UHGV virus genome: UHGV-0036034
DNA: 26,061 bases
Source: a virus
Direction: 5' to 3' (one strand)
Positions 4,564 to 25,131 of the stretch are shown piece after piece. The first letter of the stretch is position 1; the number at the start of each line of letters is the position of its first letter. A program made the position numbers and the translations under genes. The notes beneath the pieces were generated by a model. That model saw only the letters and a list, made by a program, of their open reading frames with translations, was not told the origin of the DNA and ran no database searches.

Positions 4564-4605
4564 TAGACAACCCATAAATACGAACAGATATTACCTTTCA
4601 GGTGA
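4564..4605 (+). promoter_or_regulatory. Promoter-like element with 15-bp inverted-repeat site (copy A)
   Basis: -35-like TAGACA (4564-4569), 17-bp spacer, -10-like GATATT (4587-4592), then TTACCTTTCAGGTGA (4591-4605). Sits about 90 nt upstream of the 86-aa plus-strand gene. Confidence 0.4.
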
Positions 4606-4942: not shown

Positions 4943-4985
4943 TTGAAATTACCAAATGGAGTGCTTATATTTACCTTTGCGGTAA
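4943..4985 (+). promoter_or_regulatory. Promoter-like element with 15-bp inverted-repeat site (copy A')
   Basis: -35 TTGAAA (4943-4948), 17-bp spacer, -10 TATATT (4966-4971), then TTACCTTTGCGGTAA (4971-4985). The same inverted repeat could instead fold as a weak terminator hairpin for the 86-aa gene. Confidence 0.4.
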
Positions 4986-5126
4986 ATTTACATCGCACTC
5001 CTCTTGTGCCATAGTAATCGGGCACTGGCAAAATCCAGTGCTGGGATTGGTCTCCCGGATTACTACAGAGTTAGTGCTACACTCATTGACGCCACATTGA
5101 GGTGGCTTATAGATGGAAATTTCACA

Positions 5127-5288
5127 ATGAAAAAAGCATTTGCTGCACTGTTCGTTTTGTTGTCTCTGGTAGCTTCAACTCAGGCCTTTGCCGGTCGTTG
5201 TCAGCACGACAGCGACACTGCTGCTGACGGCTCCCGCTGCGGTGGGCGTTCTGCGGATTCCCGCCCTGGCGGCGGTGGCATTCGTTAA
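5127..5288 (+). CDS. Signal-peptide microprotein (53 aa)
   Basis: MKKAFAALFVLLSLVASTQAFA-GRCQHDSDTAADGSRCGGRSADSRPGGGGIR: textbook Sec signal (basic n-region, hydrophobic core, AFA-G cleavage motif) and a roughly 31-aa Gly/Arg/Asp-rich mature part with two Cys. No obvious RBS; possible upstream promoter TTGACG (5086-5091). Confidence 0.4.
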   Translation: MKKAFAALFVLLSLVASTQAFAGRCQHDSDTAADGSRCGGRSADSRPGGGGIR

Positions 5289-5310
5289 AAACAAGGCCGC
5301 GAAAGCGGCC
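5285..5310 (-). terminator. Intrinsic terminator of the minus-strand ejection/membrane-protein operon (convergent with the plus-strand cargo)
   Basis: GGCCGC-GAAA-GCGGCC hairpin (5295-5310), followed on the minus strand by TTGTTTTT. Lies directly after the stop of the 98-aa membrane protein gene. Confidence 0.55.
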
Positions 5311-5311
5311 T

Positions 5312-5323
5312 GTGACATGTCAC
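5312..5323. repeat. 12-bp perfect palindrome GTGACATGTCAC, copy 1
   Basis: Exact 12-mer. It overlaps the TGA stop of the membrane-protein gene 5320..5616 and abuts the terminator hairpin. Confidence 0.9.
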
Positions 5324-5616
5324 GTTCCTTTTCTGAATGATAGCCGTTCGAAAAATGATGACATTCCACCGCAGACAATAGCAAAGATGATCCCACCAAA
5401 GAAGAGAAGGCCAGCCTGCCACCACTCCCACCGCCATACATCCACAGCACCAACCATACCAACAATCGCTCCAACAAATGGAATATAGCTCACGATGAAA
5501 GCAATGGGGGCTGCAATTATCCAGTGCAATCCCCACCATGATTCAAGCCCAGCCATAATTGCTGCCAACTGAAAAAGACCAACGACGATATAAACAATGA
5601 ATCCTATAGCTTGCAT
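5320..5616 (-). CDS. Small Trp-rich integral membrane protein (98 aa, about 3 TM)
   Basis: AGGTGA RBS 6-11 nt upstream of the ATG. Three long hydrophobic segments (IGFIVYIVVGLFQLAAIMAGL, IIAAPIAFIVSYIPFVGAIVGMVGAV, LLFFGGIIFAIVCGGM). Last gene of the minus-strand operon before the terminator. Confidence 0.7.
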   Translation of the reverse strand: MQAIGFIVYIVVGLFQLAAIMAGLESWWGLHWIIAAPIAFIVSYIPFVGAIVGMVGAVDVWRWEWWQAGLLFFGGIIFAIVCGGMSSFFERLSFRKGT

Positions 5617-5628
5617 GTAGTCACCTAT

Positions 5629-5802
5629 TTACCCAGTAAAAATCAGAGGCCTCCCCTCAATAAGGCTTGCAACAAGAACTATTCCCTGCACAACAAAGAT
5701 GAACCAGCAAATAGCTTGAGTCTGAGGGTTAAGAAAATATTTGTAGCGGTCAATAAATAACAACCCACCAGAAATTATCACACTCAAAATAATTAAAAAC
5801 AC
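5629..5802 (-). CDS. Candidate small 2-TM membrane peptide (about 57 aa, GTG start), below the 60-aa track cutoff
   Basis: Open frame immediately after the TAA of the 824-aa gene. AAGGAAG RBS overlaps that stop, then GTG about 4 nt downstream. Translation V/MFLIILSVIISGGLLFIDRYKYFLNPQTQAICWFIFVVQGIVLVASLIEGRPLIFTG. Its stop overlaps the RBS of the next gene. Confidence 0.35.
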   Translation of the reverse strand: MFLIILSVIISGGLLFIDRYKYFLNPQTQAICWFIFVVQGIVLVASLIEGRPLIFTG

Positions 5803-21852: not shown

Positions 21853-21896
21853 TAGACAGTTGACATTTAACGCACGAATTATTACCTTTCAGGTAA
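21853..21896 (+). promoter_or_regulatory. Promoter-like element with 15-bp inverted-repeat site (copy B)
   Basis: TAGACA (21853-21858) and consensus TTGACA (21860-21865), about 17 bp, then TTACCTTTCAGGTAA (21882-21896). Lies in an AT-rich divergent intergenic region. Confidence 0.4.
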
Positions 21897-22218: not shown

Positions 22219-22295
22219 GTGGCATTAGCTCAGTCGGACAGAGCAACCGCCTTCTAAGCGGTTGGTCGCAGGTTCGAATCCTGCATGCCACGCCA
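22219..22295 (+). tRNA. tRNA-Arg (anticodon UCU), reads AGA
   Basis: 77-nt cloverleaf read directly: acceptor GTGGCAT/ATGCCAC, U8-A9, D stem GCTC/GAGC, anticodon stem ACCGC/GCGGT, loop CTTCTAA (anticodon TCT), 5-nt variable loop, T stem GCAGG/CCTGC with TTCGAAT loop, discriminator G, encoded CCA. Resembles the host argU-type tRNA. Confidence 0.9.
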
Positions 22296-22854: not shown

Positions 22855-22866
22855 GTGACATGTCAC
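22855..22866. repeat. 12-bp perfect palindrome GTGACATGTCAC, copy 2
   Basis: Exact 12-mer, 4 nt after the TAA of the 22494..22850 gene and 4 nt before the terminator hairpin; about 75 nt past the terminase large subunit stop. Confidence 0.9.
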
Positions 22867-24416: not shown

Positions 24417-25009
24417 TGATTACTATCCTGACGTTCTTTGAGTCGCTTCCTGGCTGCTGCTATGCGATCAGCAATTGTCACATTCACATTAACATCCAGA
24501 CGTTCTTTGAACGCGTTGACATCAACATGCTTACCAATCAGCTCAAGGTTCTTCACCTTGTCAGGCCATTTAATTTTTTTGAGGATTGTCTCTATCGAAT
24601 CCTCGTTCATGTTCATGATGGTCGATGACAGATCAAAGCCACTAAGCGTAGTGCGCCAGATTTTCGGCCACTCGCGGATTGGCTTAAGGCTCCCATCGTC
24701 GTTGAGGATGTCGATCACGTCCATCTGGTCGATCTCCACCAGGCGCATGAGAACGTAATCAGCACTGACGCGCATTCGTTTGTTGCGCTCCTCCATCAAC
24801 TCGGCAATCCGTTTTTGAATGCGTTCATCGCGCATCATGACACTGGCTTTAACTGCCGCTGTATTTGGGGAGAATCCTGCGTTAATCGCTGCCTGAGTCT
24901 GGTTTTCAGGCGTTTTGATGTATGACTGGCAATAAGCCTCCTGCATTGCTGTGAGCGGCTTAAATTGCGTTGATTTGCGTTTATAGGTTTTAGGTTCAGC
25001 AGGCATCAT
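24413..25009 (-). CDS. Terminase small subunit
   Basis: Start taken as ATG 25009 or 25006 (MMPAEPKTYKRK...) with GGTGG upstream, rather than the track's TTG at 25087, because a terminator hairpin and tandem repeats lie in between. Helix-rich basic protein immediately upstream of and overlapping the large subunit. Confidence 0.7.
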   Translation of the reverse strand: MMPAEPKTYKRKSTQFKPLTAMQEAYCQSYIKTPENQTQAAINAGFSPNTAAVKASVMMRDERIQKRIAELMEERNKRMRVSADYVLMRLVEIDQMDVIDILNDDGSLKPIREWPKIWRTTLSGFDLSSTIMNMNEDSIETILKKIKWPDKVKNLELIGKHVDVNAFKERLDVNVNVTIADRIAAARKRLKERQDSNQ

Positions 25010-25016
25010 AACCACC

Positions 25017-25048
25017 GTGGTAATAGTTACCGTTGTGGTAATAGTACC
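25017..25048. repeat. Tandem direct repeat GTGGTAATAGTTACC / GTGGTAATAGTACC in the terminase leader
   Basis: Two copies with an 18-bp period (25017-25031 and 25035-25048). Each contains GGTAA..TTACC half-sites in the opposite arrangement to the 15-bp motif. Confidence 0.6.
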
Positions 25049-25119: not shown

Positions 25120-25131
25120 GTGACATGTCAC
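25120..25131. repeat. 12-bp perfect palindrome GTGACATGTCAC, copy 3
   Basis: Exact 12-mer overlapping the TGA stop of gene 25128..25469, about 30 nt before the terminator hairpin upstream of the terminase small subunit. Confidence 0.9.

Follow-up and report, generated by a model that had tools for sequence, protein, structure and literature searches.

What is the product of the short open reading frame (ORF) at positions 5127-5288 of UHGV virus genome UHGV-0036034? We analyzed the whole 26,061-nucleotide stretch of this genome (hereafter the window), which is an epsilon15/phiV10-like (Uetakevirus) prophage of Escherichia coli and which, in the region tested, is 100% identical to strain HN257. 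Judged by its codon pattern, the ORF is a real protein-coding gene whose core is under purifying selection. We propose that this gene lies in an autonomous moron cassette and that its product is a Sec-exported, cleaved and disulfide-stapled periplasmic peptide that acts on a conserved envelope component, and we consider this proposal, taken as a whole, probably correct. The gene and the two predicted parts of its product are:

5127-5288, + strand: microprotein ORF, with ATG at 5127 and stop codon TAA at 5286-5288, 53 amino acids
5127-5192, + strand: predicted signal peptide, residues 1-22 (MKKAFAALFVLLSLVASTQAFA), with n-, h- and c-region features and a predicted signal peptidase I (SPase I) site after A22
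5193-5288, + strand: predicted mature 31-amino-acid peptide GRCQHDSDTAADGSRCGGRSADSRPGGGGIR and the stop codon, a Cys-x12-Cys mini-domain

Translation of 5127-5288 gives MKKAFAALFVLLSLVASTQAFA up to the predicted cleavage site and GRCQHDSDTAADGSRCGGRSADSRPGGGGIR beyond it, in agreement with the ORF and peptide described in an earlier reading of this DNA made from its letters alone (the sequence-only reading).

Conservation of the reading frame

The strongest evidence for the gene comes from its codons. We compared the 25 codons of the core (C25 to G49) at eight loci in five genera, the copies being those of E. coli, phage phiv142-3, Klebsiella, Pectobacterium, Dickeya, Cronobacter and a divergent E. 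coli element. Of these codons, 5 vary at the first position, 3 at the second and all 25 at the third, and the pairwise comparisons hold 349 synonymous versus 48 non-synonymous changes. The window and the Dickeya copy, for example, differ by 15 synonymous and 0 non-synonymous codon differences. In the signal-peptide codons of the same loci the balance is reversed, with 146 synonymous versus 223 non-synonymous changes. Because third positions are saturated while the amino acids are unchanged, we regard the ORF as a real gene. The sequence-only reading had suggested a search for homologous short ORFs and had named loss of the frame in homologous regions as the outcome that would speak against a protein; across the eight loci the frame is kept, with the 5/3/25 pattern given above. 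The same codon-position pattern rules out the overlapping ORFs found in other frames or on the opposite strand (5175-5477 and 5188-5340).

Could the conserved DNA instead be an RNA or regulatory element, with the ORF left untranslated? Such an interpretation might appeal to the weak Shine-Dalgarno (SD) sequence of the E. coli copy and to the conservation of an RNA leader and a terminator around the gene. However, saturated third positions combined with unchanged amino acids are not explicable by RNA or DNA constraint, and, for the complete transcript, the gain in folding stability over shuffled sequences is not significant (z = -1.9). On the codon pattern, we take the RNA-element interpretation to be effectively refuted already.

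A longer version of the gene, starting at TTG 5004 and encoding 94 amino acids, appears in some gene calls and in PHROG 3117. We rejected this start since Klebsiella copies have in-frame stops upstream of the ATG, and it is further disfavored because the stretch that it would add is the promoter and hairpin region.

The 53-residue product is 100% identical to RefSeq WP_000708858.1, which the annotation pipeline PGAP names 'hypothetical protein', and a hidden Markov model search matched the ORF to PHROG 14503 over its full length (E 2.3e-40, residues 1-53 against profile positions 1-53). PHROG 14503 is placed in the category 'moron, auxiliary metabolic gene and host takeover' and described as 'membrane associated protein'. 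Elsewhere at NCBI the family is named 'transmembrane anchored protein', as in TL-2011b gp43 (YP_007001994.1). A search of the literature for the protein name, the accession, the motif or TL-2011b found no paper. The gene is already in databases as an uncharacterized family, and its function is not recorded there.

Predicted signal peptide and probable export

The N-terminus of the predicted precursor contains each of the elements of a Sec/SPase I signal: a charged n-region (KK), an h-region of at least 10 residues (the 13-residue hydrophobic core AFAALFVLLSLVA, with a grand average of hydropathy of 2.74) and small neutral residues at -3 and -1 (A-F-A at positions -3 to -1). Residues A22 and G23 are conserved at 90% or more across 66 diverse homologues, and the sequence of the hydrophobic core drifts freely; thus the signal segments diverge in sequence yet retain their hydrophobicity and an A-x-A cleavage motif followed by Gly. 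AlphaFold2 (AF2) places a helix over residues 2-22 in one model and over residues 2-15 in the model built from the alignment of the 66 sequences. The sequence-only reading had called the N-terminus a near-ideal Sec signal, unlikely to arise by chance, and both the n/h/c features and the conservation of A22 and G23 bear this out. We conclude that the product is most likely exported by Sec and cleaved after AFA22.

The database names quoted above suggest a different fate for the same N-terminus, in which the protein would be an uncleaved type II signal-anchored inner-membrane microprotein with a 31-residue periplasmic tail, acting in the manner of small membrane regulators such as MgrB. Besides the names 'transmembrane anchored protein' (NCBI, TL-2011b) and 'membrane associated protein' (PHROG 14503), this proposal is favored by the cyanobacterial homologues, in which a lipobox and a Gly/Ser/Thr linker stand ahead of the same domain and replace the cleavage signal, so that tethering appears to be compatible with function. 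However, a helix that drifts while Ala at -3 and -1 and Gly at +1 are conserved at 90% or more is the typical pattern of a cleaved signal, and 'transmembrane anchored protein' is an automated label for which no paper was found. We consider a membrane-anchored product unlikely.

Two further candidates were set aside. The sequence around the first cysteine is A-F-A-G-R-C, which lacks a lipobox, and in the family a lipobox is found only in the cyanobacterial homologues; a lipoprotein cleaved by signal peptidase II, or an o-spanin like Rz1, was rejected on this basis. A spanin is also disfavored by position, as the lysis genes of the window lie at about 187-1981, across the tailspike gene from the ORF.

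The mature Cys2 mini-domain and its family

The predicted mature part comprises 31 residues (3.06 kDa) with two cysteines, C25 and C38, as the sequence-only reading had counted them. Its composition is polar and rich in Asp, Arg and Gly, without a hydrophobic core. The sequence-only reading went on to call this segment low-complexity, a description that does not hold: the mature part is the most conserved portion of the protein and forms a Cys2 mini-domain common to hundreds of proteins, both of cells and of mobile elements. The family motif is G-x-C-x3-[DQ]-x-A-x-DGSRCG-x-R-[SA]-A-x-x-RPGG, which in the window takes the form DGSRCGGRSA...RPGG with C-x12-C spacing. Ten residues (C25, A32, G35, S36, C38, G39, R41, R46, G48 and G49) are unchanged in all 66 of the diverse sequences, and the 25-residue core is nearly invariant among unrelated phages, plasmids and chromosomes. 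The His of 'CQHD' is not conserved across the wider family, and the tail that follows RPGG differs by carrier (GGIR, GGYR, EGAR, Q, K or D). We expect that C25 and C38 are joined by a disulfide in the mature peptide. In the AF2 model from the 66-sequence alignment, the predicted local distance difference test (pLDDT) score is 72-81 over residues 21-40, a beta-bridge links residues 31 and 37, and short turns follow C38.

How widespread is the domain? A profile search of 1.84 billion representatives matched 385 clusters at 50% identity (E <= 1e-3), and a second search returned 687 clusters at 90% identity, every one of them unnamed or named 'transmembrane anchored protein'. The typical member is a precursor of 47-55 residues consisting of a signal peptide and the domain, and members occur in Enterobacterales, Pseudomonas, Rhizobiales, Vibrio, Bacteriovorax, myxobacteria and cyanobacteria. 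In multidomain relatives the domain stands after signal peptides or alongside SH3_3 domains, and a four-cysteine 'CPCPY' variant adjoins SH3_3 domains. Five relatives (P0072, P0073, P0113, P0138 and P0142) have a different layout, with a signal peptide or lipobox, a domain of about 80 residues and a hydrophobic helix preceding the mini-domain.

The protein has no match in Pfam-A 2025 even at E <= 10, only noise in NCBIfam 20.0 (E 0.07-0.16) and none in PADLOC 2.0, and scans of 20 larger family members against Pfam, NCBIfam and PADLOC placed no model over the domain. Likewise, a sequence-profile search of the PDB gave 0 matches at E <= 10. Among Pfam, NCBIfam, PADLOC, PDB and BFVD, all of which were searched, no curated family or solved structure covers the domain.

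The architecture of the larger relatives raises the possibility that the domain serves as a small tag that anchors or binds to peptidoglycan, lipopolysaccharide (LPS) or divalent cations, and that the lone peptide would modulate the envelope by occupying such sites. The domain is the C-terminal module of some proteins of 100-300 residues, and 110 of 182 instances end three or fewer residues from the C-terminus, many of the C-terminal ones behind Gly/Ser-rich linkers. Tandem copies in some relatives (P0076 and P0185), the co-occurrence with bacterial SH3_3 domains and the polar Asp/Arg/Gly composition without a hydrophobic core would all suit a tag. Against this, the scans of family members gave no match to known cell-wall-binding or sorting domains, the residue after RPGG is not conserved, and the survey of neighboring genes revealed no linked processing enzyme or sortase-like gene. 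A tag of this kind seems to us decidedly improbable.

The moron cassette and its carriers

Morons are transcribed independently, as units that have a promoter and a terminator of their own and a deviant base composition (PMC3594210). The cassette that contains the microprotein gene consists of these elements:

5069-5325, + strand: moron cassette (predicted -10, leader hairpin, ORF and terminator), starting at a BLAST homology boundary (query position 170, window position 5069)
5075-5083, + strand: putative extended -10 element TGcTACACT, with a conserved TAnnnT, 3-7 nucleotides before the hairpin
5091-5106, + strand: leader stem-loop GCCAC-ATTGAG-GTGGC, present in the minimum-free-energy fold, at or near the predicted 5' end of the mRNA
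5113-5130, + strand: five-codon mini-ORF MEISQ*, with a TGA that overlaps the start codon of the microprotein ORF (ATGA) and with the SD-like GGA at 5115-5117 inside it
5294-5311, no strand assigned: GC-rich hairpin AGGCCGC-TTTC-GCGGCCT, a terminator of bidirectional type common to convergent genes

BLAST homology between carriers has a sharp boundary at 5069; the common part extends over 5069-5650, and in several phages over only about 5069-5325. The guanine-plus-cytosine (GC) content is 57% in the ORF, 69% in the mature part and 44-50% in the flanks. Related phages differ in whether they have the gene: phiv142-3 and TL-2011b carry it and phiV10 lacks it. Of 5426 complete E. coli genomes, 422 (about 8%) contain the 257-bp cassette with a coverage of at least 80%. 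With a predicted promoter and terminator, deviant GC content and variable presence, the cassette is, as far as such features can tell, a moron.

The carriers are diverse. Epsilon15-like prophages of E. coli, Klebsiella, Cronobacter, Kluyvera and Buttiauxella have the gene in a slot bordered by the tailspike gene and by the ejection-protein genes, one of which carries an SLT domain; in these prophages an antirepressor module usually comes first, and the microprotein gene closes the series of + strand genes. An epsilon15-like prophage of Pseudomonas alloputida (loci L075-L077, 6001-6141) has a homologous gene of 46 amino acids in the slot between ejection proteins and tailspike. This copy has the same leader of -10, hairpin and ATGG as well as a strong terminator, and it is co-oriented with the structural genes. 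A distinct Pectobacterium/Dickeya prophage carries the gene beside a giant MuF_C protein, and an E. coli element carries it downstream of a lysis cassette and a RelB/YafQ pair. The gene is also found on large plasmids, and it is the sole non-backbone gene of a 3,360-bp mobilizable ColE1-like plasmid of Klebsiella pneumoniae (L078, NZ_CP138754.1, 2104-2265); this is the only record of such a plasmid in PLSDB, and metagenomic contigs of about 3 kb share its variant. Finally, chromosomal copies lie amid housekeeping genes in Agrobacterium, in Dolichospermum and in a 1.65-Mb genome. In one Klebsiella prophage (L004, 8711-9094), a homologue of Rap1a, an immunity protein against amidase effectors of the type VI secretion system, is encoded two genes away in the same accessory slot.

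Several of these contexts would fit a superinfection-exclusion factor that works in the periplasm, where it would block either the muralytic or ejection machinery that incoming podophages bring with them or some other enzyme that attacks the envelope. In epsilon15-like prophages of hosts ranging from Pseudomonas to E. coli, the gene is flanked on one side by ejection-protein genes, one with an SLT domain, and on the other by the tailspike gene; P22 carries sieA in the analogous slot. The Rap1a homologue two genes away in the Klebsiella prophage might be read in the same way, and as the sole cargo of a 3.36-kb plasmid the gene looks like a self-sufficient protective gene. In addition, the first moron to be characterized, HK97 gp15, is an exclusion protein (PMC3594210). 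However, any moron would occupy an accessory slot, the protein has no similarity to PADLOC models or to the Sp, Ivy, MliC and PliC families, and the near-identical chromosomal homologues in housekeeping, non-phage settings argue for a general cellular role. We think it rather unlikely that the peptide serves specifically in exclusion. In broader terms, the sequence-only reading had offered a periplasmic effector or an exclusion factor among its suggestions, and a role of that general kind would be a reasonable possibility.

That reading also offered a peptide signal. Might the peptide leave the cell, as a toxin or bacteriocin or as an arbitrium-like signal in phage communication? The tail after RPGG varies by carrier, and the gene adjoins the immunity (immI) region; moreover, the STb enterotoxin is a small Sec-dependent cysteine-containing peptide encoded on E. 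coli mobile elements. The contexts examined hold no linked immunity, exporter or receptor gene, and the leader is not of the double-glycine kind. The plant-associated, free-living and cyanobacterial carriers argue against a toxin aimed at animal hosts, and a core that is nearly invariant between unrelated carriers is the opposite of a phage-specific code. A released peptide is therefore very improbable in our estimation, and a phage-specific signal, as first suggested, is unlikely given the invariant core and the lack of a receptor gene alongside. Two specific versions were rejected outright: an AimP-like arbitrium peptide, since no conserved neighbor could serve as a receptor gene and the core is the same between unrelated carriers, and a class II microcin or bacteriocin, since the leader is of the Sec type and no exporter or immunity gene was seen in the contexts examined.

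Leader, ribosome-binding site and terminator of the cassette

The region ahead of the gene has a recurrent layout, in which TAnnnT is followed after 3-7 nucleotides by a GC-rich hairpin of 5-7 bp and, 15-28 nucleotides after the hairpin, by the ATG. When 15 diverse loci are compared, near-invariance upstream of the gene is confined to three columns, the T, the A and the last T of TAnnnT. Leader hairpins were scored by an explicit search with shuffled and random controls, and the composite leader, a motif that was defined post hoc, was found at 14 of 19 loci versus 1-2% of the shuffled or random controls. The pairing is preserved by at least eight different stem sequences, including GCGCC/GGCGC in Pseudomonas; RNAalifold predicted no structure on a MAFFT alignment of the leaders, in which the loops are misaligned. 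In phiv142-3, TL-2011b and Klebsiella a strong terminator stands upstream of the leader element, and therefore the cassette appears to be a separate transcription unit.

The sequence-only reading saw no clear ribosome-binding site in the window, and we agree, as the only candidate is the weak GGA at 5115-5117, 9 nucleotides before the ATG. Distant copies have clear SD sequences, for example AAGGA and AGGAGG. The mini-ORF at 5113-5130 is preceded, 10 nucleotides upstream, by an SD-like GAGG in the loop and 3' arm of the hairpin, and its overlap with the main ATG recurs in the Kluyvera (L017) and Enterobacter (L022) copies; elsewhere the frame of the upstream ATG varies. More generally, an ATGG located 11-15 nucleotides upstream is kept at many loci, in varying frames.

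Downstream, a hairpin lies directly 3' of the stop codon in every homologous cassette, and clear + strand terminators are present at loci L011 and L075. The hairpin of the window is followed by a perfect palindrome, GTGACATGTCAC, which occurs three times in the window (5312-5323, 22855-22866 and 25120-25131) versus 0.1 expected. All three copies are at gene boundaries, the first directly behind the shared terminator hairpin, and the palindrome is conserved after the hairpin in Cronobacter and Klebsiella loci. The convergent gene (5320-5616, - strand) encodes a 98-residue multi-pass membrane protein of phrog_3075 that weakly resembles holin superfamily V (Pfam E 0.027). This gene comes immediately behind the ejection-protein genes and is a frequent, though not constant, companion of the cassette.

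Upstream promoter-like element and truncated immI leader

A second set of regulatory elements lies upstream of the cassette boundary:

4943-4971, + strand: sigma-70 promoter-like element TTGAAA-17-TATATT, 10 of 12 matches, the best in the region, outside the cassette
4971-4985, no strand assigned: palindromic operator-like site TTACCTTTGCGGTAA (TTACC-N5-GGTAA), abutting the -10 of the element at 4943-4971
5009-5068, + strand: truncated two-hairpin RNA resembling IsrK/c4-a1b1 (isrK 42.1 bits, E 7e-8; c4-a1b1 31.5 bits)

The palindrome TTACC-N5-GGTAA occurs at five sites in the window (4591-4605, 4971-4985, 21882-21896, 25009-25023 and 25027-25041) versus 0.46 expected, and a phage repressor or regulator probably binds to it. 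It overlaps the -10 or start of + strand promoter-like elements, with two tandem sites near 25.0 kb, and further copies are found in phiv142-3 (L002, about 2310) and ahead of the small ORF in Cronobacter (L008). A tRNA gene at 22219-22292 (+ strand, Rfam 73 bits), in an otherwise - strand structural region, lies downstream of the operator-bearing promoter at about 21860-21896.

To what unit does the promoter at 4943-4971 belong? The isrK and c4-a1b1 matches are below the gathering score and lack the 3' part, ending at 5069. The relatives phiV10, TL-2011b, phiv142-3 and a Klebsiella prophage have a full IsrK (68-77 bits), a C4 RNA (61-78 bits) and a Bro-N antirepressor; of this set, the window prophage retains neither the C4 antisense RNA nor the Bro-N antirepressor, and its IsrK is without the 3' half. 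The resulting junction at 5069 is rare: of 5426 complete E. coli genomes, only two, HN257 and NADC1036, share it. In NADC1036 the sequence is also present on a separate 38.7-kb record (NZ_CP076267.1), possibly an excised phage. We assign the predicted promoter at 4943-4971, together with its palindrome, to the remnant of a P1-type immI (IsrK/C4) leader and not to the cassette. As regards membership of the microprotein gene itself in a C4-controlled immI operon, relatives do carry IsrK and C4 ahead of it, but a strong terminator and a putative -10 of its own intervene before the ORF, and in the window C4 is deleted. The sequence-only reading had given the gene its own promoter-like element with a shared 15-bp motif: the element and the palindrome exist, and the motif is indeed repeated beyond expectation, but both belong to the immI-type leader, the palindrome lying about 140 nucleotides upstream of the ORF and outside the boundary at 5069.

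Proposed mechanism and significance

We propose the following sequence of events. The cassette would be transcribed from its own extended -10 promoter and, in this prophage, would probably receive additional read-through from the operator-controlled promoter at 4943-4971, since deletion has removed the IsrK terminator along with the C4 RNA and the antirepressor gene. The conserved 5'-terminal stem-loop probably stabilizes an mRNA whose SD is weak. Second, the 53-residue precursor would be exported by Sec and cut by SPase I after AFA22, and C25 and C38 would be oxidized by DsbA in the periplasm. The disulfide would staple a small mini-domain of a beta-hairpin plus turn (C-x-H-D-x-D-T-A-A-DGSRCGGRSADSRPGG), soluble and of 3.06 kDa. 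Finally, the peptide may bind a conserved cell-envelope component or an envelope-acting enzyme rather than a phage-specific partner; a conserved envelope target is likely because near-identical peptides are encoded in Rhizobiales and cyanobacterial chromosomes and on plasmids. The prophage copy would then act as a lysogenic-conversion or host-protection factor.

A number of observations weigh against this proposal. The predicted cassette promoter has no recognizable -35 and was missed by a generic promoter scan, which needs one; since the leader motif was defined post hoc, so is its enrichment. At the hairpin at 5294-5311, a canonical T-run is seen on the - strand alone, and on the + strand an A-run comes before the hairpin. 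The confidence of the AF2 model for the mature part is moderate (pLDDT about 72-81), and Foldseek comparison of this model with the PDB and BFVD returned nothing at E <= 0.001. There is no recurrent partner gene among 49 loci (within 3 kb on either side), so that no partner or target can be inferred from context. Lastly, simple topology would place the mini-domain of the helix-preceded larger relatives in the cytoplasm, in conflict with the rest of the family.

A more specific form of the proposal can be put forward tentatively, as a possibility that we regard as less than probable. The peptide may be the phage-borne form of a broad, uncurated extracytoplasmic Cys2 domain ('DGSRCG-RPGG'; Proteobacteria, cyanobacteria, Bacteriovorax and myxobacteria) with a single conserved envelope activity, for example the inhibition or capping of an envelope enzyme or structure. 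It would have been captured by podophages from Pseudomonas to E. coli, and by the 3.4-kb plasmid, as a stand-alone protective gene that brings its own promoter and mRNA-stabilizing 5' hairpin.

What is already known is that the gene is annotated and that a moron coding for a secreted small protein is a familiar kind of element. Exported small proteins are under-studied, and most prophage morons have no assigned function. Taken together, the prevalence of about 8% in E. coli, the unrelated carriers, the near-frozen core and the uncurated family point to a precise and conserved envelope target. Furthermore, the conserved promoter and 5' stem-loop leader would make a compact, portable expression cassette.

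Comparison with known systems

PHROG 14503, PHROG 3117, WP_000708858.1 and YP_007001994.1 represent the same protein family as the microprotein, and identical RefSeq and phage entries exist. These entries carry an automated or descriptive name only, with no function, processing, domain definition or regulatory anatomy.

Among small Sec-exported proteins that protect the envelope, T4 Sp (spackle) inhibits the gp5 tail lysozyme, and Ivy, MliC and PliC are periplasmic lysozyme inhibitors; Ivy has a short disulfide-closed loop (CKPHDC). The microprotein would resemble them as a small exported protein, but they are proteins of about 100-150 residues with a hydrophobic core, and they share neither sequence nor fold similarity with it. 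Similarly, the acidic D-x-A-x-DG-S-x-C beside a cysteine in an extracellular mini-domain recalls Excalibur (DxDxDGxxCE) and the DxDxDG calcium loops; the spacing differs, and there is no match to Pfam Excalibur even at E <= 10.

In genetic organization the cassette resembles the HK97 gene 15 moron (PMC3594210), which is also a small single gene between structural genes with its own promoter and terminator, deviant GC content and variable presence, and by this likeness expression of the microprotein gene from the prophage is to be expected. HK97 gp15 is an inner-membrane protein unrelated in sequence, and its exclusion activity was shown by experiment, whereas the role of the microprotein is a proposal.

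Finally, the surroundings of the gene resemble the immI locus of P1 and P7 (C4 antisense RNA, icd-ant) and Gifsy-1 IsrK; the IsrK-orf45-anrP locus of Gifsy-1 is related to the P1-type immI layout (PMC4825925). In the relatives of the window prophage, the run of + strand genes downstream of the module of IsrK/a1b1, C4 and Bro-N ends with the microprotein gene. What remains of such a module in the window is the promoter, the operator and the first two hairpins, the C4 RNA and antirepressor being deleted. The microprotein gene lies outside the immI and IsrK systems as described, from which a terminator and its own predicted -10 and hairpin separate it.

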